A stretch of DNA of 64,000 nt, from the NCBI GenBank assembly GCA_040767605.1, contig JAXGOI010000001.1, positions 1,124,607-1,188,606 of the forward strand. The letters are read 5' to 3'. Origin of the DNA: Clostridiales bacterium. Its GTDB lineage: Bacteria > Bacillota > Dehalobacteriia > UBA4068. Of this stretch, positions 4,134-39,284 are shown piece by piece. The number at the start of each line of letters is the position of its first letter. Within the stretch, counting starts at the first letter, position 1. A program made the translations under genes and the position numbers. The notes below the pieces were generated by a model, which searched no databases, was not told the origin of the DNA, and saw only the letters and a program-made list of their open reading frames with translations.

Positions 4134-5183
4134 ATGGTTTTTTGGTTGCCTATAATCGGAGGTATGCTGGCGGCGCTTTTTACCACCCCTCTGGCTATAA
4201 AATTTGCCCGTAAATTCGGCGTTGTGGATTTACCCAATGCCCGCAAAGTTCATGAAAAGCCTATGCCCCGTATGGGAGGGATTGCCATATATGCCGGTTT
4301 TATGGTGGGGGCTTTATTGCTCGGCGTATATTCCAGGCAAATGTTTTCCCTGCTGCTTTCCGCCAGTATTGTTATGGGAATAGGCCTTTATGATGATATT
4401 CGGGGTATATCCCCAAAGGGCAAGTTTTTAGCCCAAATTGTAGCCGCCCTGGTTTTTGTTGAAAGCGGAGCTTTAGTTAAATTTATTACAAACCCTTTTA
4501 GCGGGGGGATGATTTCCCTCGGTGTATTTGCCATTCCCTTAACTGTATTGTGGCTTGTGGGGATGAGTAATGCTATTAACCTGGTAGACGGTTTAGACGG
4601 CCTTTCCTCCGGTATAAGTACCATTGCCGCTCTTACAATTTCTGTTGTTTGCTATGCCCGGGGGGATTTTCTCACAAGCGCTCTGGCCGCTATTTTAGCC
4701 GCCGCCGCTTTAGGTTTTTTGCGCTATAATTTTCACCCCGCAAAAACCTTTATGGGGGATTGCGGCTCCCTTTTCCTCGGTTTTATGCTGGGGGCTTTGG
4801 CTGTAATGGGCTTTTCAAAAGGGGCCACGCTAATTTCTATTTTCAGCCCTCTTTTAATTATGGGCATACCCCTTTGCGATACCGTATTTGCTATTTTGCG
4901 GCGGCTTTTTCAAAAGCGCCCGATTTTTCAGGCGGATAAAGGCCATTTGCATCATTGTCTTCTTTCTTATGGTCTTTCCCACAGTCAAACAGTTTTAGTT
5001 ATTTACGGGATAAGCCTTTTAATGGGAATTGCCGCGGTTTTACTGGCAGTGCTTACTACATCTCAGGCTATATTTATTTTAATTATTACTATGGTTTTAA
5101 TCTTTTTAGGAGCCGATAGAATCGGGGTTTTACGGGGCAGAAAAAAAGCGGCTATTCAAAAGCCGTCTAAAAGCAAGATATAG
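4134..5183 (+). CDS. tagO: glycosyltransferase family 4 (MraY/WecA/TagO family) undecaprenyl-phosphate GlcNAc-1-phosphate transferase
   Basis: motifs DDIRGISPK and NAINLVDGLDGL characteristic of the MraY/WecA family; about 11 TM segments. Confidence 0.8.
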   Translation: MVFWLPIIGGMLAALFTTPLAIKFARKFGVVDLPNARKVHEKPMPRMGGIAIYAGFMVGALLLGVYSRQMFSLLLSASIVMGIGLYDDIRGISPKGKFLAQIVAALVFVESGALVKFITNPFSGGMISLGVFAIPLTVLWLVGMSNAINLVDGLDGLSSGISTIAALTISVVCYARGDFLTSALAAILAAAALGFLRYNFHPAKTFMGDCGSLFLGFMLGALAVMGFSKGATLISIFSPLLIMGIPLCDTVFAILRRLFQKRPIFQADKGHLHHCLLSYGLSHSQTVLVIYGISLLMGIAAVLLAVLTTSQAIFILIITMVLIFLGADRIGVLRGRKKAAIQKPSKSKI

Positions 5184-6541: not shown

Positions 6542-6816
6542 CTAAAAAAAACCCCTTAAGTTAATTGCCAGATAGATAAAGACCGGCAGTTTTATTTAGA
6601 AGAAAGAACCTCTTAAAATAAGGGGTTCTTGTTTTTTTTAAGAGAAATATGGGCTAAAAAGCCTGTTTACTCTCGACTGCTTACGGCAATTTCTTAAAAA
6701 GCCTCATGCTATACTAAAAACAGTAAAAAGCTCCGGGCTTTTGCCGGGGCAGCGGTATTTTGCTTAAAGAGTTTATCCTGCGGGTTTTAAAAAGCTGTAA
6801 GGGAAAGGAAAAGAGT

Positions 6817-7017
6817 ATGCCTTATAAAGTCTGCCCGTCCTGTAATCAAACATCATATTCCGCCGGGGAAAGAGGTATTTGGTATTGCCCTTATTGCGGC
6901 GCGGATATGACATTTTGCAATAGCTGCATCCGCCCCAATAAAGCTGAAAATGCCAACCCCCTTCATGGTAATCCCCCGAATTATTTGCGGATAATCCAAG
7001 AGCCCCATAAGGATTAA
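6817..7017 (+). CDS. small zinc-ribbon protein
   Basis: CPSC...CPYC...CNSC cysteine pairs; start moved to MPYKV with GGAAAGGAAAAG SD; followed by a 10 bp GC-rich inverted repeat at 7031-7068. Confidence 0.45.
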   Translation: MPYKVCPSCNQTSYSAGERGIWYCPYCGADMTFCNSCIRPNKAENANPLHGNPPNYLRIIQEPHKD

Positions 7018-7164
7018 AATGATCCCTTTGTGCCCCGGGCGGCTTTGACTCCCCCAAAGACCGCCCGGGGCGCCTCTCTTAATTAAAAATTTTTCTATTT
7101 CAGGCAAAAGCAAAAGGCTGAGGGCATAGAATAGAAAAATCAGGGTTAAGGGGGCTTAAGCATT

Positions 7165-7554
7165 ATGGGGTTTTTTATCGCGGTTTTTTTGATTTTAGGC
7201 GCTTGGGCTGTATATTTTATATATAAAAGGCTGCCCCCTGTAAGGGAGCTGCCTGTTTTGTATGTAATTGTGGCAAAGGATACCCAAAATACGGAATGGC
7301 TGATTCGCTATATTTTCCGCCAAACAAAAAATTGGCGCTTGAAAATAGTTTGCCCCACCAAAGGGGAAGAAAGGGCTATTTTAGAAAGGCTTAACAGCCA
7401 GTATGGTTTTGAACTTTTAGATATTGCCCCGGCCGGCATGGAATTTAAATTAGAAATAAATAAAAAAAGCAAGCCTAAAGAATTAAAGAAAGAGCTGGGG
7501 CTTTTAAACGCAAAAATAAAAAGAAAGGGAAACCCTCTCCCGCGGAGAATATAA
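7165..7554 (+). CDS. hypothetical membrane-anchored protein
   Basis: single N-terminal TM helix, lysine-rich tail; no recognisable motif. Confidence 0.45.
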   Translation: MGFFIAVFLILGAWAVYFIYKRLPPVRELPVLYVIVAKDTQNTEWLIRYIFRQTKNWRLKIVCPTKGEERAILERLNSQYGFELLDIAPAGMEFKLEINKKSKPKELKKELGLLNAKIKRKGNPLPRRI

Positions 7555-7579
7555 AGAAAAAACCAAAGGGGGCCATAAA

Positions 7580-8311
7580 ATGAGGCTGGGGCATAAAATT
7601 TTATTTATCGGCCGCCAGGTATTCTTCCCGGTTAATTCCTGTCCGGTTTGTAATTGCCCTAATAATTCCCCCGGCCCCTGCGGGGAATGCCTGAAAAAAA
7701 TTAAAAATTTGCCCCGCTGTTCCTGCGGCTTTATTTTGCAAAACAGCTTAATTTGCCCTATTTGCGGGGAAGATAAAAAACTAAGGCCCTTGACCGGCGT
7801 TTTGCCCGGGCTTTTTTATGAGGGGAGCCTAAGGCAAAATATAATTAAGTTTAAATATGGGGGCAAAACTTATTTTGCCCGGCCCTTTGCCGCCCTTTTA
7901 GAGGCCTTAATAAGGGAGTTTTACCCCAAGCTGCAATTTGAGGCAATAGTACCGGTGCCCTTATCTTTTAAAAGAGAGAAAGAAAGAGGGTATAATCAGG
8001 CTGAGCTTTGCGCCGGGTTTTTAGGAAAAGCGCTGGATTTGCCCCATTTCCCTAAGGCTTTAGAGCGGGTAAAGGAAACCCCTCCTTTAGCCGGCCAAAC
8101 AAGGGAGCAAAGGCTTAAATATATGAAAAAGGCCTTTATAGCCGATGCCTCTCAGGTAAAGGGGAAGAGAATTCTTTTATTAGACGATATTTTTACCACC
8201 GGGGCAACAGCCTTCAGCTGCGGCGAGGCTCTTTTAAAAGCCGGCGCCAAAGAGGTTTTTGCCCTTACTTTAGCCTATACCCCGGCGGAGAATAATCAAT
8301 CCACAAGTTAA
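7580..8311 (+). CDS. comFC: ComF family protein (ComFC; double zinc ribbon plus phosphoribosyltransferase domain)
   Basis: N-terminal CxxC x4 zinc ribbons, C-terminal PRTase motif LLDDIFTTGAT; gene order comFC-hpf-secA-prfB as in Bacillus. Confidence 0.8.
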   Translation: MRLGHKILFIGRQVFFPVNSCPVCNCPNNSPGPCGECLKKIKNLPRCSCGFILQNSLICPICGEDKKLRPLTGVLPGLFYEGSLRQNIIKFKYGGKTYFARPFAALLEALIREFYPKLQFEAIVPVPLSFKREKERGYNQAELCAGFLGKALDLPHFPKALERVKETPPLAGQTREQRLKYMKKAFIADASQVKGKRILLLDDIFTTGATAFSCGEALLKAGAKEVFALTLAYTPAENNQSTS

Positions 8312-8548
8312 GCACAATAAATAGAGTTAATCCCCAAAAACATAAGGGTAAAACACAAATTATTAACAATATTATCCACATTTTCCACAGAAAAAGCGGC
8401 TAAAATTCTATTATGGCAACAGAGATTTTAATTAAACAAAAAGAGGAAAAACCTCTTTTTAGGGGAATTCTTTACAGTAGCAAGGCAAAACCTAAACAAA
8501 CTAAACCAAGCTAGACGCCGCTTTTGCGGTTGATAATATATGTAAGGG

Positions 8549-9088
8549 GTGAAGGTTATGAAGGTTAATGTAAAAGCAAGAAATTTGGAAGTAACTTTAG
8601 CTCTCCGTGAATATCTTGAAAAAAGGCTTGCCAAGTTTGAAAAGCTTGTAGGCGCCGAGGAAGCCCAGGCTACATTTTCCGTAATTAAGGACAGGCACCG
8701 TGTGGAGGTAACCATACCCTTAAACGGGCGGATTCTTCGGGGAGAAGAAGAAGGCTATGATATGTATTCTGCTATTGACAGTGTATCAGATAAATTAGAA
8801 AGCCAGGTTCAGCGTTATAAAACCCGCCTTTCCAAAAAGGGCCGGGGCATAACAAAAGATGCCCATCTTGCGGCATTGGTAAGCCAGCCTCATCCGGAAG
8901 AGGAGGATGAATTCCCCGTAAGGGTTAAGCGCTTCCCCTTAAAGCCCATGCCTGTGGAAGAGGCTATTATGCAAATGAACCTTTTAGGGCATAATTTTTT
9001 CCTCTTTTTAAATGCCGACGGGGAGCAAATGAATTTAGTTTATAAGCGCCGGGACGGAAGCTACGGCCTTTTGGCGCCGGAGGTTTAG
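8549..9088 (+). CDS. hpf: ribosome hibernation promoting factor, long form
   Basis: MKVNVKARNLEVT...LREYLEKRL N-terminal domain plus C-terminal dimerisation domain; 179 aa. Confidence 0.9.
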   Translation: MKVMKVNVKARNLEVTLALREYLEKRLAKFEKLVGAEEAQATFSVIKDRHRVEVTIPLNGRILRGEEEGYDMYSAIDSVSDKLESQVQRYKTRLSKKGRGITKDAHLAALVSQPHPEEEDEFPVRVKRFPLKPMPVEEAIMQMNLLGHNFFLFLNADGEQMNLVYKRRDGSYGLLAPEV

Positions 9089-33449: not shown

Positions 33450-35354
33450 ATGGCAGGTCCCGGCGGGCCCCACAGAGGGGGTATAAAAACCCGGAAGCCT
33501 AAAAGCGCCGCCAAGGCATTTTTACGCCTTATAAAATATTTGCTGCCCTATAAATTTCAGCTTATAGCCGTGGTAATTTTAGTTTTTATCAGCGCAATTT
33601 CCGGCGTGGCAGGCTCCTATTTTATTAAGCCCCTTTTAAATGACCATATTGTGCCCTATATAGGCAAATCTCCTTCCCAGCTGGAAATGCAGCCCTTTAT
33701 AAGAATGATAGTTTTAATGGCTTCAATTTACCTTGCCGGGGTTTTGGCAACCTATGGTTACAGCCGCCTGATGGTAAATATAGCCAATAGAACTTTATTT
33801 GCCTTGCGCAATGATCTTTTCGGCAATATGCAGGATCTTTCTTTAAATTATTTTGATACCCATACCCATGGGGAATTAATGAGCCGTTATACCAATGATG
33901 TGGATACGGTAAGGGAGGCCTTAAGCCAGGGAATAACCCAGTTTATTTCCTCGGTTATTACAATTTTAGGGGCCTTTATAATGATGCTTGTTTTAAGCCC
34001 CATTCTTACCTCTCTTTTAATTGTAATGCTGATTTTAATGTTTATAATTGTGAAGGTTTTAGGGGGTAAAAGCGCCCATTATTACCGTAAGCAGCAAATG
34101 GCTATCGGAACCGTTAACGGCTATATAGAAGAAATGATTGAAGGGCAAAAGGTAATTAAGGTTTTCGGCAGGGAAGAAACTGTTAAAAAAGACTTTGGGG
34201 AATTAAATGAAACCCTGCGTAAGGCGGCAACCAGCGCCAACTCTTATGCCAATATTATTATGCCTATTATGGGTAATCTCTCTTATTTTAATTATGCTTT
34301 AACGGCGTCTGCCGGGGCTTTACTGGTTATAGCCGGCAGAATGGATATCGGCACCGTGGCTTCATTTTTACAGTACAGCCGTTCTTTTTCCATGCCCTTA
34401 GTTCAAATGTCTCAGCAATTTAATGCTGTTTTAGCTGCTTTGGCGGGGTCTGAGCGGATTTTTGAGATTATTGACCAAAAGCCGGAATATGATGAAGGCT
34501 ATATTAGCTTGGTAAATGCCGAAGAGGACCGGGATAAAACATTAAAAGAGTGTGATTGCCCCACGGGAATTTGGGCATGGAAGGAGCCTGTTGGGGGAGG
34601 CGGTTTTAAATATACCCGCCTTTTGGGGGAGGTTCGTTTTCATAATGTGGGTTTTGGCTACGAGAAAGATAAAAAGGTGCTTAAAAATGTTTCTCTCTAT
34701 GCCAAGCCCGGGCAGAAAATTGCCTTTGTAGGCTCAACAGGGGCCGGTAAAACTACAATAACCAATTTAATAAACCGCTTTTATGAGGTTGAAGAAGGGC
34801 AGATAACCTATGACGGCATAGATATACGCAAAATAAAAAAAGACGATTTGCGCCGTTCTTTAGGTATGGTTTTACAGGATACCCATCTTTTTTCCGGCAG
34901 CGTAAAAGAAAATATCCGTTACGGCAAGCTGGATGCCACGGAGGAGGAAATTATTTCCGCCGCTAAAATGGCTAATGCCCATGGTTTTATCGGCCATTTG
35001 CCCAAGGGTTATGATTCCCTCCTTAAAGGAGACGGCTCTAATTTAAGCCAAGGGCAAAGGCAGCTTTTAAATATTGCCAGAGCCGCTGTGGCAAACCCCC
35101 CGGTATTAATTTTGGATGAGGCCACAAGCTCCATTGATACCCGTACGGAGGCTCTGATAGATAAAGGGATGGATACCCTTATGGCCGGGCGCACCGTTTT
35201 TGTAATTGCCCACCGCCTTTCCACAGTCAGGAATGCGAATGCCATTATTGTACTGGAAAACGGTGAGATAATTGAAAGAGGAGACCATGACCAGCTTTTA
35301 GCCCAAAAGGGTAAATATTATCAGTTTTATACCGGCCAGTCTGAGCTGGCATAA
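33450..35354 (+). CDS. ABC transporter permease/ATP-binding protein (partner half-transporter)
   Basis: overlapping stop/start TAAATG; NBD motifs GSTGAGKTT, LSQGQRQLLNIARA, ILDEATSSID. Confidence 0.85.
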   Translation: MAGPGGPHRGGIKTRKPKSAAKAFLRLIKYLLPYKFQLIAVVILVFISAISGVAGSYFIKPLLNDHIVPYIGKSPSQLEMQPFIRMIVLMASIYLAGVLATYGYSRLMVNIANRTLFALRNDLFGNMQDLSLNYFDTHTHGELMSRYTNDVDTVREALSQGITQFISSVITILGAFIMMLVLSPILTSLLIVMLILMFIIVKVLGGKSAHYYRKQQMAIGTVNGYIEEMIEGQKVIKVFGREETVKKDFGELNETLRKAATSANSYANIIMPIMGNLSYFNYALTASAGALLVIAGRMDIGTVASFLQYSRSFSMPLVQMSQQFNAVLAALAGSERIFEIIDQKPEYDEGYISLVNAEEDRDKTLKECDCPTGIWAWKEPVGGGGFKYTRLLGEVRFHNVGFGYEKDKKVLKNVSLYAKPGQKIAFVGSTGAGKTTITNLINRFYEVEEGQITYDGIDIRKIKKDDLRRSLGMVLQDTHLFSGSVKENIRYGKLDATEEEIISAAKMANAHGFIGHLPKGYDSLLKGDGSNLSQGQRQLLNIARAAVANPPVLILDEATSSIDTRTEALIDKGMDTLMAGRTVFVIAHRLSTVRNANAIIVLENGEIIERGDHDQLLAQKGKYYQFYTGQSELA

Positions 35355-35427
35355 AAAAAGCGCCTAAAGGCGTCCTACCATAGGGATTGGTAATCCCTGA
35401 AAAACTCGGCATAGTCGTGTGATACGG

Positions 35428-36117
35428 CTATGCCGTTTTTTCGTGCGTTTTCGGAATCTCGACTGCGCCGATGCAGTTGTAGATAATCTGGATGCGCTGG
35501 GTACGGACGCCATCGACCTTTTCTGCCTTGTAGACGATGATTTTCTCAATGAACTCGCGGATTATCTCTCCGTCCAATTCCGTGAAATCCGTGTAGCCCT
35601 TGACCCGTGTGAGAAAGCGGTCGATGTTGAGCGCCCTCTCTTTTGTGGCGTCGAGCATGGCTTTGAGCACCGTGGCTCTCTCCACGAGGGCTTTCTGCTC
35701 AGCCTCGTAATCGGCGGACATCCGGCTGAAACGCTCCTCCGAGATTTTCTCCATCACATGGTCTTCGTAAAGACGCTGCATGATTTTGTCCAGCGCCGCT
35801 ATCCGCACCTGCCCTTGCTCGTATTCCTTCTGCGCAAGCCGCATATCCGCAGCGTGTTTTTTCTCGGAATCCCTTTGCACCAGCTCGACAAACTCGCGCT
35901 CGTGTTCGCTGGCAAAGGCAATGACCCGCTTCAAATCGTCCATCACCAGCTCCTCGATGACCACATTGCGTATCTGGTGGGAACTGCACAAGCCCTTCTT
36001 TTTACGGTATGTAGCGCAGACGAAATATTCCTTGTCGTGCGTCCAGCCGTTGGCTCTGACCTGATACAGCTTCGCGCCGCAGTCGGCGCAGTACATCATG
36101 CCGGAAAGAGCGCCCAT
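35428..36117 (-). pseudogene. large serine recombinase (TnpX/TndX-like), C-terminal fragment only: zinc beta-ribbon plus coiled-coil; catalytic resolvase domain missing
   Basis: LSGMMYCADCGAKLY...FVCATYRKKKGLCSSHQIRN zinc ribbon; same frame upstream hits a stop at 36196-36198 and no S/R catalytic motifs are encoded upstream. Confidence 0.75.
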
Positions 36118-36272
36118 TTGGCTAATGCCGCCGTGTAAGCTGCTGCGGCATTCTGTGGGAGTGCACAGAGGTGGTGTGCCGGGTCGTTTGCCATGTCACG
36201 CAGTTCCGGCGCAACAGTGGCGTTCTTCATGCTTTTCCAGAAAGCGTCGGTGATTTTTTCGTAAGTTAACAT
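36096..36272 (-). CDS. small ORF (58 aa) overlapping the recombinase fragment start
   Basis: AGGAGG SD then ATG at 36272; MLTYEKITDAFWKSMKN...; could be a frameshifted relic. Confidence 0.3.
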   Translation of the reverse strand: MLTYEKITDAFWKSMKNATVAPELRDMANDPAHHLCALPQNAAAAYTAALAKWALFPA

Positions 36273-36289
36273 TGTAATATCCTCCTAAT

Positions 36290-36577
36290 TTAATAACAGT
36301 TTTTGCAGGTGTAGACGGCCAGCGTGTGCCGGTCGAGGTGCGGCGCTATGGAGTCCATGACCGCACCGCAGTAGGGACAATGGATGGTGTACCTGAGATA
36401 ATCCGTCATGCTGTGGGGCTGCCTTGCATGGAGCCGGTATCGATTCGGGATGAATTCTTCAAGGTATAGGTCGTGATGGTCGTTGACGCAGCCATAATCG
36501 GTGTTGCCGAACATGGGCGTTTTGTCGGTGCCGTCCATAGTGGTGTCCACAAGCGGGTGGTACTTGATGTCCGTCAT
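36290..36577 (-). CDS. small zinc-ribbon protein (95 aa), island cargo
   Basis: AGGAGG SD; C-terminal CPYC...CKNC; start overlaps upstream stop (ATGA). Confidence 0.5.
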   Translation of the reverse strand: MTDIKYHPLVDTTMDGTDKTPMFGNTDYGCVNDHHDLYLEEFIPNRYRLHARQPHSMTDYLRYTIHCPYCGAVMDSIAPHLDRHTLAVYTCKNCY

Positions 36578-36861
36578 GCGCTTTTCCTCCTGAATTTGTC
36601 ATAACGGCGTTTAAGCAGAATGGCGCGAATACGGCTGATGTAGCCTCTGTCGATGCAGTCCTGCAGCATCTGGTCGATTGTGCCGTACCAGCAGCTCCCG
36701 CCGCGACAGCGCATATTGAGATATTTGTCCTTGCTCATGTCTCTGGGAACGAGCAGGACGGCGGCGTCCTCGTGCGACTGCGGCACGACAGCCAGCAGGT
36801 GGAAAGTGGCAAGGTTCATATCCATGCGCAGGTAGCGCTCCAGTCGTCTGTTCAGCTTCAT
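36574..36861 (-). CDS. small basic hypothetical protein (95 aa), island cargo
   Basis: start 4 nt after upstream stop; Cys/Arg-rich (MRCRGGSCWYGTIDQMLQDCIDRGY). Confidence 0.5.
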   Translation of the reverse strand: MKLNRRLERYLRMDMNLATFHLLAVVPQSHEDAAVLLVPRDMSKDKYLNMRCRGGSCWYGTIDQMLQDCIDRGYISRIRAILLKRRYDKFRRKSA

Positions 36862-36865
36862 GCGC

Positions 36866-37141
36866 TCACGCCTCCACGTCGGCAAGGGGATTGCCGGAGA
36901 GGTCAAAGAAGCGTCCCTTGCAGTACGCCATCGCCTCGTCATAGCTGCCGAACACAAGGCAGGAGCAGCCGTATTCGACCTTCCATATCGGGAAGTCCGG
37001 GTCGTTGTTCTGGGAGACAGCCACAGGCTGGCCCTTGCGATTCTGTAGCAGGAAGTGGCAGTCGTAGTGGCCGCGAGAGAACATTCCTCTGTCGTTGGCT
37101 GTGAAGCGCGGCTTCGCGCCGTAGGTTATCTTGCGTTTCAT
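36866..37141 (-). CDS. small hypothetical protein (91 aa), first gene of island operon
   Basis: SD GGAGGAAAACAAC then ATG at 37141; MKRKITYGAKPRF... Confidence 0.5.
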   Translation of the reverse strand: MKRKITYGAKPRFTANDRGMFSRGHYDCHFLLQNRKGQPVAVSQNNDPDFPIWKVEYGCSCLVFGSYDEAMAYCKGRFFDLSGNPLADVEA

Positions 37142-37168
37142 GTTGTTTTCCTCCATTTGTTTGATTTT

Positions 37169-37180
37169 GGGTATATACCC
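37169..37180. promoter_or_regulatory. perfect 12 bp palindrome GGGTATATACCC just upstream of island operon SD
   Basis: read directly; overlaps probable -10 region; candidate operator. Confidence 0.35.
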
Positions 37181-37780
37181 CGTTTGAATTCGCGTTTTTG
37201 TGTACGAAGCCCCACGCCGCTGTCCGAGATGAATAGCTGTGGAGATTCGACCTCCCCCTGATAAGTACCCCAAAAATTGGACAGCCATAGTTGTCCTTAT
37301 CCGCGTTTGCAAGAGCAACGAAGCAAAGGCTGTTTCATTCTCTAAGGCGCGTAACGAGCAGAATGGCACGCTCAGTTGCGGAAGCAAGAATCTTCACGAT
37401 ATTCTTGTTTTGTTCATCCCGGACTACCAGCCGAAAAAGCGGTACAAGGTTACGGGCGAATTTGATGCCGAAAACCGTGTGATGTACTACGATATGACCA
37501 CAGCGGAGGTGTCGGAGTTCCGCGCTGTCAAGGAGTAAAGTGCCGCCGTATCGGTGGTGCTATGCCGTCGGTGCGGCTTCCTTAGGGATTTTTCTGCACG
37601 CAAAAAAGCAGCCATGCAGGAGCGTAAATGCTCTTACATGGCTACTTTCTTGTTTGCGCCGCTTGAAGCTGTCACTCAAGTTTTTTTGTTAAATCCCTGT
37701 GTGAACGCTCCAAAAAGGCGCTTTTTTATTGGCGTAAATTTGGCTTTTACCCCTTAAAGTGTTACCGGCGAAGGGAATTC

Positions 37781-38428
37781 TTATTTTATAAGTTCCTCCC
37801 ATAATTCTTCCGGGCAGATTTCTTTTAAAAGCACTTGTTTATATTCGGTTTTATTTTTAAGGCCTTTTGGGGGGTAGTCCTCTTTATTAAGGGCTTTTAA
37901 AAGCCTTGGTTTTGCCCCGGCTTCCTCCTCTTCCAGTAAAAGGCGGATAAGCTCATCCTCCCCCTGGTTAACAATGGCGCTTCTTAAGGCCTTGGCCCTT
38001 GGGCTTTGGGGTATGCAATAATGGCTCCGGCAGACAAAGGGCCGGGCATTATGGTTTCTACAGCGCTTGCCTTCAAAATTCAAAAAAATACAGGCCCCGT
38101 TTCGGCGCTTAAGGGTAATATCCCCGCAGCCGTCGCTATTAATTTTAAGGCTGCCAAAGGCATTTACAGCCTCATGAAGGGGAAAGCCGCTCTCTTCTAA
38201 TAGCTTCAGGAGGGCCGGCATATCCATGGAGGTTAAAGGGGCTCTTTCATGGCAGCAGCCGTCGCAGCCAAGGCAGCTGTTAAGGTTTTCCGCCGCAAAG
38301 GCCTCCAGGGCATCTAAATAATCCTGGCAATTAGCCTTTGGGGAAAGGATTTTTATATCATAGCCGAGGCAGGGGAAGCCCCATTCATCCTCAAAGGCCA
38401 TGGGGAGTACGGCTATATTTTTATTCAC
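37781..38428 (-). CDS. YkgJ/UPF0153 family cysteine-cluster protein
   Basis: CLGCDGCC (CxxCxxCC) motif plus further conserved Cys; overlaps folD stop by 8 nt (co-transcribed). Confidence 0.7.
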   Translation of the reverse strand: MNKNIAVLPMAFEDEWGFPCLGYDIKILSPKANCQDYLDALEAFAAENLNSCLGCDGCCHERAPLTSMDMPALLKLLEESGFPLHEAVNAFGSLKINSDGCGDITLKRRNGACIFLNFEGKRCRNHNARPFVCRSHYCIPQSPRAKALRSAIVNQGEDELIRLLLEEEEAGAKPRLLKALNKEDYPPKGLKNKTEYKQVLLKEICPEELWEELIK

Positions 38429-39284
38429 AATTAATACTCCCGGCGCAGGCCTCTATGGTATGGCGGCAAAGTATTGCGGCGGTTACCGCACCAACGCCTC
38501 CGGGTACCGGGGTAATGGCCTCAACTATGGTTTTTGCCTCATTAAAATTAATATCCCCGCAAATAAAGCCGGGCTTATCAGGGTCTTCATTTATGCCTAC
38601 ATCAATCAGAGTTTGCCCGGGGCGGGTATATTCTTTGCCAATATAAGCGGGCCTGCCAATGGCCGCAATAAGAATATCCCCCTGACGGCAGACGGCAGGC
38701 AAATTCCGGCTTTGGGAATGGGCAATGGTTACCGTGGCGTTTTCTTTTAAAAGCAGCATGGAAAGGGGCCTCCCCACCACCTGAGAGCGGCCGATTATCA
38801 CTGCCCGGCTGCCTTTAACGGGTATGGAATAGTATTTAAGTATTTCTATTACAGCCCGGGCCGTACAGGGGGCAAAGCCCATTTCATCCCCGGCAAAAAT
38901 TGCCGCGCTGCTGGTTCTGGTGAGGCAATCAATATCTTTTTTAGGGTCAATAGCCTCCCTGGCGGCTTTTTCATCAAGCTCTTTAGGCAAAGGGCAAAAA
39001 AGCAATATGCCATGGATTTTAAGATCTTTTGAAAGGGCTGTGAGTTTTTTGCTTAAATCCTTAGTTTTAATCTCGGCGGGCAGGGTATGAATCTCACATT
39101 CCATGGCTATACGCTTAGCGCATCTTTCCAAAGTTTCCTGGTAAGATATATCGTCGGGGTTTTCCCCCACCCTTACCAAAGCCATGCGGGGTATAATTCC
39201 CCGGCCCTTAAGCTCTTTTATAAGCTCTGTATTTTCGGCCTCCAGGGCCGCGGCAACCTCTTTGCCGGATAGTATTTTTGCCAT
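38421..39284 (-). CDS. folD: bifunctional methylenetetrahydrofolate dehydrogenase/cyclohydrolase
   Basis: MAKILSGKEVAA...YQETLERCAK...GRSQVVGRPLSMLL...HSQSRNL motifs. Confidence 0.9.
   Translation of the reverse strand: MAKILSGKEVAAALEAENTELIKELKGRGIIPRMALVRVGENPDDISYQETLERCAKRIAMECEIHTLPAEIKTKDLSKKLTALSKDLKIHGILLFCPLPKELDEKAAREAIDPKKDIDCLTRTSSAAIFAGDEMGFAPCTARAVIEILKYYSIPVKGSRAVIIGRSQVVGRPLSMLLLKENATVTIAHSQSRNLPAVCRQGDILIAAIGRPAYIGKEYTRPGQTLIDVGINEDPDKPGFICGDINFNEAKTIVEAITPVPGGVGAVTAAILCRHTIEACAGSINCE

Follow-up and report, generated by a model that had tools for sequence, protein, structure and literature searches.

A 64,000-nt stretch of contig JAXGOI010000001.1 from a Clostridiales bacterium, hereafter the window, carries a GC-rich island between an ATP-binding cassette (ABC) exporter gene pair and the convergent ykgJ-folD genes. 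This island (positions 35366-37715, 2350 nt) is very probably the gutted remnant of a mobile element of ~13-14 kb that inserted into the terminator loop shared by the two converging host operons. About 17% of the parent element is kept in the window. Both ends of the element and its exact split target are retained, which makes it possible to reconstruct the insertion event to the base.

The island is bordered by a 12-nt inverted repeat (AAAAAAGCGCCT and AGGCGCTTTTTT) that a repeat finder reports as 100% complementary, with its arms 2350 nt apart. The ABC exporter stop codon ends in the first A of the left arm, and the right arm is ~53 nt from the stop codon of the ykgJ-like gene. When the arms are rejoined, the rebuilt target site (attB) has a perfect stem of 11-12 bp with A6 and T6 flanks (-18.3 kcal/mol, z = -2.8), whereas neither of the present-day junctions folds better than shuffled controls (z = 0.17 and 0.05). 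Because the arms are perfectly complementary and only the rebuilt site folds, the insertion is predicted to have split a single intrinsic terminator between the ABC pair and ykgJ-folD. The stem is preceded by an A-run as well as followed by a T-run, and hence this terminator should be bidirectional. The rebuilt hairpin supports a first-pass annotation of the window, which had placed the insertion in the convergent-terminator gap between these genes.

Related loci define where the element stops. On the recombinase side, similarity to a JGI contig (L004) begins just 5' of the ATG of a 229-amino-acid (aa) recombinase open reading frame (ORF), spans its stop codon plus 62 nt, and halts exactly at 35366. 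More distant copies (L005-L010) lose similarity at this same base. The end motif, which reads ...AATCCCTATG.TAGGAC.CCTTT up to the junction, is found in L004, L005, L038, L043, L045, and L063, and different host DNA follows it in each. On the opposite side, ~180 nt located 3' of a 137-aa gene are conserved up to ...AAATCCCTGTGTGAACGCTCCAAA, after which L046, L048, and L052-L060 diverge completely; the corresponding point in the window is 37715. Host DNA beyond this end differs each time in L046-L049 and L052-L060. An exact scan of IMG/VR for this end had no match, and a metagenome scan located nine loci. The two terminal segments (37658-37715 and 35366-35400) pair as an imperfect inverted repeat, and joining them produces a candidate attP that is an imperfect palindrome (fold z = -4.6 versus shuffles), which is what serine integrase attP sites look like. 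Both host-element junctions, as well as the first of two internal deletions described below, are reproduced at 100% identity by independent assemblies from five sequencing runs.

The composition of the island also sets it apart. Its GC content is 53.5% versus 44.0% in the remaining window, no window of the same size elsewhere in the 64 kb exceeds 48.3% (island z = 5.1), and its strand-symmetric tetranucleotide distance to the window background is large (z = 18.4). In 400-nt windows the GC fraction is 0.52-0.585 over 35400-37600, and most flanking DNA is at ~0.39-0.47. GC at third codon positions (GC3) is 0.64-0.79 for island ORFs and 0.44-0.51 for ABC1, ABC2, ykgJ, folD, and gyrB. These values confirm the GC-rich foreign island proposed by the first-pass annotation and are not the uniform GC or k-mer signature that it had listed as contrary evidence. 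The limits it gave (35355-37760) were close, with the actual junctions 11 nt away on the left and 45 nt away on the right. Its suggestion of a higher-GC Firmicute source agrees with the nearest relatives of the island genes, which are annotated as Oscillospiraceae/Oscillibacter, a group of higher-GC Clostridia. A megablast search with the island gave zero matches among PLSDB plasmids and INPHARED phages, and scans across it with Rfam (permissive thresholds) and ARAGORN reported no RNA family and no tRNA.

Internal deletions and surviving genes

The 229-aa ORF is a 3' fragment of a large serine recombinase gene. It matches Zn_ribbon_recom (PF13408, 3.5e-15) over residues 4-63 and DUF4368 (PF14287, 9.8e-24) over residues 155-220, and Pfam detects neither a Resolvase (PF00239) nor a Recombinase (PF07508) domain in it. 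This is the result expected for the truncated TnpX/TndX-like recombinase without a catalytic domain that had been described at first pass, where searches with PF00239, PF07508, and PF13408 were proposed. By homology, the region between the zinc ribbon and DUF4368 is probably a coiled coil. The ORF corresponds to residues 329/332-560, or the C-terminal 41%, of an intact 560-aa protein, and it is collinear at 80% aa identity with residues 329-560 of the L043 recombinase, which has a YCRLSRDD motif with Ser34. In L004, the recombinase is 99% identical to the window fragment in protein and 97% in DNA, and the gene extends upstream into PF07508 directly 5' of where window similarity ends. The N-terminal part of the L038 recombinase matches Resolvase (9.5e-24). 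Another source of an intact 560-aa recombinase is the IMG/VR entry IMGVR_UViG_3300050186_000007. There is no recombinase similarity elsewhere in the 64-kb window, and a PDB sequence search with the fragment found no match. Because no catalytic recombinase domain remains, the relic is predicted to be unable to excise by itself.

At deletion 1, the window reads ..GCATTAGCCAAA followed by TGGGCGCTC, the L038 capsid gene reads ..GCATTAGCGAAA followed by GAAAAC, and the L004 recombinase gene reads ..GGGCGAAA followed by TGGGCGCTC. The microhomology at this junction is 4-6 nt long (GCNAAA). This deletion took out tnpW, the bulk of the capsid gene, and recombinase codons up to ~328, and four independent contigs cross the junction. 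The minus strand carries four ORFs beyond the 229-aa ORF (58, 95, 95/127, and 91/173 aa), which had been noted at first pass as four small ORFs. They are present, but the 58-aa ORF is not a gene. Its translation aligns at 64% aa identity with residues 14-69 of the Phage_capsid protein (317 aa) encoded by L038, and deletion 1 fuses the capsid gene to the recombinase gene; thus, this ORF is a capsid stub that runs out of frame. The first-pass statement that the recombinase and four small ORFs are on the minus strand holds, and a plus-strand gene fragment (~37290-37538) exists as well.

This plus-strand fragment lies beyond deletion 2. The window matches the intergenic segment of intact elements up to 37258 and resumes similarity, now to the 137-aa gene, at 37290-37299. 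Lost in this deletion are the genes for the primase-helicase, a helix-turn-helix (HTH) regulator, and a 407-aa serine recombinase, the cargo, and the 5' ~55 codons of the 137-aa gene. There are 108 homologues of the 137-aa protein, and nearly all are 135-142 aa long, whereas the window is without the first ~55 residues. In L046-L049, L052-L054, and L057-L058, the 137-aa gene is located 3' of the 407-aa Resolvase+Recombinase gene and is the last before the element end. The first-pass annotation had viewed the island as the decayed edge of an element. Decay is evident, but this is not an edge, since the whole element has been collapsed by two internal deletions with both attachment ends kept (Table 1).

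Table 1. Positions of features in and around the island, numbered from the first letter of the window
Feature	Positions	Strand	Basis or context
ABC exporter pair	ends 35354	+	left flank of island
Host half of terminator hairpin (B arm), AAAAAAGCGCCT	35354-35365	.	12/12 complementary to 37716-37727
Recombinase-side element end (P' arm), AAAGGCGTCCTACCATAGGGATTGGTAATCCCTGAAAAAC on + strand	35366-35400	-	similarity to relatives stops at 35366
Element-borne bidirectional terminator hairpin (predicted)	35401-35441	.	+ strand terminator scan: 13 pairs, loop 3, TTTTTT tail; also reported as an inverted repeat
3' fragment of DUF4368 large serine recombinase gene, 229 aa	35428-36117	-	PF13408 and PF14287 matches only
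Major capsid gene stub, 58-aa ORF	36096-36272	-	first ~52 codons capsid, then out of frame into recombinase fragment
Deletion 1 junction, capsid codon ~52 to recombinase codon ~329	36118-36130	-	microhomology GC(C/G)AAA
Zinc-ribbon (CxxC...CxxC) ORF, 95 aa, intact	36290-36577	-	family core gene between 91-aa and capsid genes
ORFan, 95 aa (MKLNRRLERYL...)	36574-36861	-	between 91-aa and zinc-ribbon genes
91-aa ORF, intact	36866-37141	-	most conserved small core gene of family
Conserved ~100-nt non-coding segment, long imperfect hairpin	37156-37258	-	3' of primase-helicase gene in intact elements
Deletion 2 junction and ~35 nt filler with small hairpin plus T-run	37259-37296	.	similarity break on both sides
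137-aa gene 3' fragment, last ~82 codons	37290-37538	+	gene adjoins other end of intact elements
Second element-borne hairpin: A-run, long stem, T-rich tail	37596-37657	.	inverted repeat, 28-nt arms, 79% complementary; 3' of 137-aa gene
Other element end (P arm), CGCTTGAAGCTGTCACTCAAGTTTTTTTGTTAAATCCCTGTGTGAACGCTCCAAAA	37658-37715	+	nearly identical in L046-L049, L052-L060
Host half of terminator hairpin (B' arm), AGGCGCTTTTTT	37716-37727	.	perfect complement of 35354-35365
CxxCxxCC (ykgJ-like) gene	37781-38428	-	right flank of island
folD	38421-39284	-	right flank of island

Functional cargo had been considered possible for the island. The restriction-modification cargo of intact relatives is gone, and three small ORFs remain. 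The zinc-ribbon ORF has 56-59% aa identity to a 98-aa ORF of L038 and L043-L046 and 43% to its counterpart in GenBank entry MT838964.1. It has a good Shine-Dalgarno sequence, and its single-sequence structure model is too poor for use (predicted local distance difference test score, 52). The 91-aa ORF also has a Shine-Dalgarno sequence, and both ORFs belong to a module that is conserved down to 43-52% aa identity. The 95-aa ORFan has no relatives among the related loci, IMG/VR, or the phage collection, and its GC3 (0.74) is in line with the rest of the island; it is either an extra small gene or not a gene. In another sample (L012, ~415-701), the sequence equivalent to window positions 36574-36861 has a 1-nt deletion that splits the ORFan into ORFs of 41 and 54 aa, which reflects either a sequencing error or a lack of selection. 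None of the small ORFs matches a family in Pfam, PHROGs, NCBIfam, or PADLOC. All three have good ribosome-binding sites and are downstream of a conserved non-coding segment, and they may still be expressed.

This ~100-nt segment has 91-94% nucleotide identity to L038 and L043-L047, compared with 72-83% in adjoining coding sequence, and its L038 equivalent (5046-5149) is between the primase-helicase and 91-aa genes. RNAalifold predicts a hairpin with no compensatory changes. It might serve replication, as an origin or priming site, or act as a packaging site; a leader RNA is another possibility. We also considered a tRNA-like attachment site remnant and rejected it, since there is no tRNA or Rfam support and the hairpin is without covariation.

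Other copies of this recombinase lineage are decayed as well (L005-L010 and L039-L042). The copy represented by ENA, JGI, and Logan contigs L039-L042 (~6690-8740) has a different host context, near glycine reductase and plsX genes. Here the last third of the recombinase follows almost directly on an HTH_26 gene and an N-terminal primase fragment, an independent internal collapse in which the recombinase-side end is again kept. A separate feature of the scaffold of L038, the best intact relative, is a run of Ns (~7935-7945) that coincides with the linker joining the recombinase domain to the zinc ribbon. The window deletion and many database truncations fall here too, and the N-run may reflect assembly branching at a module boundary.

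The parent family and known elements

A full-length parent had been suggested as a search target at first pass. Relatives that show the parent architecture are present in metagenomic and IMG/VR contigs (L038, IMG/VR contigs L043-L045, and L046/L047) and more distantly in MT838964.1; they are intact or nearly so when pieced together from overlapping loci. The right arm encodes, in order, a 765-aa primase-helicase, the 91-aa protein, one or two ~98-aa zinc-ribbon proteins, a 317-aa major capsid protein, TnpW, and the 560-aa large serine recombinase. The left arm is in the opposite orientation and encodes an HTH_26 regulator, restriction-modification genes, the 407-aa Resolvase+Recombinase protein, and the 137-aa protein. 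Domains of the primase-helicase are NrS-1 polymerase HBD, D5_N, and Pox_D5, and those of the 560-aa recombinase are Resolvase, Recombinase, zinc ribbon, and DUF4368. The L038 capsid protein matches PF05065 (1.7e-65) and the PHROG category 'major head protein', and major head proteins from phages of gut Clostridia share 38-48% identity with the capsid. TnpW of L038 matches PF14202 (3.9e-13). Cargo consists of a methyltransferase (MTase) and ResIII in L046 and is MmeI-like in L038. The core from primase through recombinase is ~6 kb, and the parent size of ~13-14 kb comes from overlapping L046 with L043/L038.

No portal, terminase, protease, tail, head-tail adaptor, or terS gene was seen in the loci examined, and no relaxase or conjugation gene is among the called genes and Pfam matches of L038, L043-L047, or the window. 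From its gene content, the parent is best described as a primase, single-capsid, TnpW, and serine-recombinase element that is satellite-like or resembles an integrative and mobilizable element (IME). The first-pass annotation had offered an integrative and conjugative element (ICE), an IME, or a prophage as the source. Judged by the loci examined, the parent is neither an ICE nor a prophage. Its sole phage-structural gene is the major capsid gene, and the complete head, tail, packaging, and lysis modules of a prophage were not seen.

GenBank and IMG/VR file relatives of the element as viral. MT838964.1 (L061) is an unannotated 4712-bp human fecal sequence deposited as 'UNVERIFIED: Bacteriophage sp.', which means that family members have already been entered as phage sequences. 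Its primase, 91-aa, zinc-ribbon (x2), and capsid genes form the same module at only 24-52% aa identity, and gene order is therefore conserved across wide divergence. The left-end module found in L046-L049 and L052-L060 always has the 407-aa Resolvase+Recombinase protein, which is without a zinc ribbon, beside the 137-aa gene. In L048, a module of MTase, ResIII, 407-aa recombinase, 137-aa gene, and element end is linked to a different recombinase gene set. The left arm may be exchanged as a module of its own or belong to a multi-recombinase system.

The presence of Zn_ribbon_recom and DUF4368 in the window fragment is shared with elements of the TndX/TnpX-like DUF4368 clade (among them Tn5397 and Tn4451/Tn4453), and so are the Resolvase, Recombinase, zinc ribbon, and DUF4368 order of intact relatives and their neighboring tnpW gene. 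By this domain content and the adjacent TnpW gene, we place the recombinase in that clade. The window fragment is homologous to the large serine recombinases of the clade but would not be a functional enzyme, as it is without catalytic and recombinase domains. Targets of Tn4451/Tn5397 are GA-centered and resemble the element joint. The parent differs from elements of this type in its primase-helicase and phage major capsid genes, in the relaxase and conjugation genes that were not seen in the loci examined, and in flanks that resemble halves of intrinsic terminators. The DUF4368 clade, which includes TndX-like transposases, has been termed 'multi-targeting', and DUF4368 occurs in 63% of this clade versus 0.73% of site-specific large serine recombinases (Durrant et al. 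2022, PMC10083194). Close recombinases of the family described here are likewise found at many unrelated chromosomal sites.

Phage satellites such as phage-inducible chromosomal islands (PICI), capsid-forming PICI, PICI-like elements (PLE), and P4-like elements (de Sousa et al. 2023, PMC10085698) resemble the parent in small size, an integrase, a primase-helicase, an HTH regulator, defense-type cargo (restriction-modification genes), and a capsid-related gene, and a PLE with a large serine recombinase is known (PMC6002521). However, capsid-forming PICI (PMC10085698) differ from the parent, which has one structural gene and for which no portal, protease, terminase, or adaptors were seen in the loci; on this gene content the parent would not fit their definition. 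The window relic differs further in keeping just 52 capsid codons. Unlike an ICE, neither L038, L043-L047, nor the window has type IV secretion, conjugation, or relaxase genes. With regard to an IME, the parent has its own integrase, and none of the loci examined, which are all incomplete elements, shows a relaxase domain. From the genes seen, the parent would fit the definition of neither the Tn4451/Tn5397 type nor a phage satellite.

Terminator-like insertion sites

Host DNA beside family ends provides 21 distinct flanks, of which 11 adjoin the recombinase end and 10 the opposite end. Within 22 nt of the junction, 16 of the 21 have a GC cluster with a run of four or more T residues after it, compared with an expectation of 4.6% from random 22-mers of the same loci (binomial P ~7e-18). 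The association of family flanks with terminator-like sequence is strongly supported by this sequence comparison, and it suggests that the family habitually inserts beside terminator-like sequence as its preferred landing site. One insertion (L066, 104-180) is just 3' of a tRNA-Pro gene identified by ARAGORN, and the flanks of L048 and L057/L058 show by eye what appear to be tRNA gene 3' ends that are cut by the contig end. Terminators after tRNA genes would fit among the targets.

Each end of the element also has a hairpin of its own. The arms of the hairpin at 35401-35441 (CGGCATAGCCG and CGACTATGCCG) are conserved in all relatives, and this hairpin overlaps the last recombinase codons and the stop codon (GAA AAA ACG GCA TAG, or EKTA*). 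The ..EKTA* C terminus is near-universal (L004, L005, L038, L039, L043, and L062-L071). Because the A-run and first stem arm of the hairpin double as its coding sequence (GAA AAA ACG GCA TAG CCG), this conserved terminus may reflect a constraint at the nucleic-acid level. The second hairpin (37596-37657) is kept in L046/L048 with two-sided stem changes (AGCC..GGCT versus GACC..GGTC) that were read from the sequences. It is probably a bidirectional terminator that insulates this end of the element.

In the mechanism that we propose, a 560-aa DUF4368 recombinase would have used the A-rich loop of the shared terminator as attB and recombined it with an attP that is an imperfect palindrome, and crossover probably occurred at an AA dinucleotide. 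The recombinase may recognize terminator-like palindromes in general and cross over in their A-rich loops. The empty site is predicted to read GCTGGCATAAAAAAAGCGCCT-A(3-4)-AGGCGCTTTTTTATTGGCG, with the ABC and ykgJ stop codons ~80 nt apart, and the circular junction is predicted to read GTGTGAACGCTCC-A(3-5)-GGCGTCCTACCATAGGGATT. Two later internal deletions gutted the element, and the relic is predicted to be locked in place. Although insertion should have destroyed the host terminator, the element-borne hairpins inside each end probably now terminate the ABC and ykgJ transcripts, and they may have served to insulate the element from read-through.

This leads to a broader reading that we offer tentatively and judge somewhat more likely to fail than to hold. 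The relic may be the footprint of an undescribed satellite-like family (primase-helicase, two or three tiny conserved proteins, lone major capsid without portal or terminase, TnpW, and DUF4368 recombinase) that uses terminator hairpins as dispersed 'safe' attB sites, crosses over in the loop, and carries a replacement bidirectional terminator inside each end. The window copy would be non-autonomous and mobilizable in trans. Group IIC introns home to rho-independent terminator stem-loops, a 'safe' intergenic site of which a genome has many copies. They resemble the family in this class of target, but they differ in size and gene content, and they use ribozyme/reverse-transcriptase retrohoming rather than conservative serine recombination. 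Within the library searched, a literature search for serine recombinases that target terminators found no report, which is weak evidence of novelty, and a search on elements with capsid and TnpW found no direct precedent.

Alternative explanations and significance

Several points weigh against these readings. The empty site was not found; 24 Peptococcaceae-like genomes have gyrB-folD-ykgJ, but the ABC pair is not adjacent and they are hence uninformative. The closest ykgJ among relatives is just 54% identical, and look-ups of the exact proteins return the same occupied site each time and no other context. The pre-insertion state is consequently a reconstruction rather than an observation. No end-to-end intact element is on any single contig, and the parent size is pieced together from overlapping loci. 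The flank motif was chosen after inspecting the flanks, and the other insertions contribute one flank each, such that complete hairpin halves are extrapolated from the case in the window. Finally, no independent contig fully crosses deletion 2. All five Logan contigs that reach this junction, which come from both sides (L001, L012, L013, L050, and L051), stop in 37233-37283, and the overlap between contigs of the two sides never exceeds 25 nt. The population could be polymorphic at this junction. Breaks within 50 nt in five runs suggest a branch in the assembly graph, for example from related or longer elements or from a polymorphic junction.

The same contig ends would be expected if the join over 37259-37296 were an assembly artifact or minority variant and the real element were longer and possibly intact. 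This is distinctly improbable, since contigs of both sides carry the junction-specific filler (37259-37283) at 100% identity to the window, and this filler is absent from that position in intact relatives. Furthermore, four independent contigs span deletion 1, so the recombinase is truncated regardless. It is also unlikely, if less so, that the relic is a maintained non-autonomous mini-element that is excised and perhaps replicated or packaged in trans, with small proteins that still act, for instance, on a helper phage. Both ends are nearly base-for-base as in intact elements, the ~100-nt segment and small genes are kept, and the 91-aa and zinc-ribbon ORFs are intact with the Shine-Dalgarno sequences and module conservation noted above. 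The contig breaks at deletion 2 in five runs also suggest that related sequences occur in the same communities. However, both deletion junctions are unique to this lineage, and other loci never join the 91-aa and 137-aa genes or the capsid and recombinase genes. The exact proteins are confined to one set of related samples and always have one chromosomal context, the ORFan is frameshifted in one contig, and there is no sign of a second copy or a circular junction. Mobilization of the relic in trans by the recombinase of a related element is conceivable because both attachment ends are intact, but it is unsupported.

The 229-aa protein might alternatively function on its own, perhaps as a dominant-negative inhibitor of incoming related recombinases. 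Among its best 120 matches, 41 are 222-237 aa long, and 40 of these 41 begin with Met just before the zinc ribbon. Some short forms sit within long contigs, and the window and L004 genes differ by 19 synonymous and only 2 non-synonymous codons. On the other hand, residues 269-328 of intact proteins are free of Met and are followed by Met329/332/338/339, and any break within those 60 codons would therefore yield an identical called start. The DNA upstream of the window ORF is a capsid stub that arrived via a microhomology deletion, and its ATG has no Shine-Dalgarno sequence that can be read off the sequence. In addition, L005 and L039 are pseudogenes broken in other ways, full-length relatives of 470-560 aa are common in an exhaustive search, and a low non-synonymous rate can predate truncation. 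We consider independent function highly improbable. The existence of a genuine family of short zinc-ribbon/DUF4368 proteins was rejected on the basis of the L038 scaffold gap, the frameshifted L005 and L039 genes, and the Met-free stretch. That the island is instead native DNA of locally unusual composition in which the recombinase-like ORF is a domesticated host gene is almost certainly wrong. Host GC itself spans 0.39-0.53 across the window, with folD/ykgJ as high as 0.51, but the tetranucleotide distance of the island is extreme and its GC3 is well over that of host genes. All parts of the island have relatives in elements bordered by unrelated host genes, and the island splits a perfect hairpin. 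We rejected native origin on these three grounds of composition, relatives within elements, and the split hairpin. Peptococcaceae-like genomes also keep gyrB-folD-ykgJ without island genes in the 8 kb beside ykgJ; presence of the island as core genome in relatives is what the first-pass annotation had listed as contrary to a foreign origin.

Taken by itself, the relic is an unremarkable decayed mobile element. Internal deletions, a pseudogenized integrase, compositional contrast, and a site between convergent genes are shared with ordinary remnants of prophages and integrative elements, and this relic differs from them in keeping its two attachment ends and its exact split target. We advise annotating the region as a defective integrated element that comprises a pseudogenized recombinase, a capsid stub, and a truncated 137-aa gene rather than as a set of hypothetical proteins. 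More generally, gene-calling on broken recombinase genes explains the excess of ~230-aa 'DUF4368 domain-containing proteins' in databases. The terminator preference and the lone capsid gene are the sole features that might be worth more work. Anaerobic Clostridia are poorly charted for satellites, and the parent, which has a primase-helicase and a lone capsid but no packaging machinery, is a candidate for a minimal phage satellite in this group. If the preference for terminators is true, it would be a simple rule for the insertion sites of one group of 'multi-targeting' recombinases, which is relevant to genome-engineering tools.

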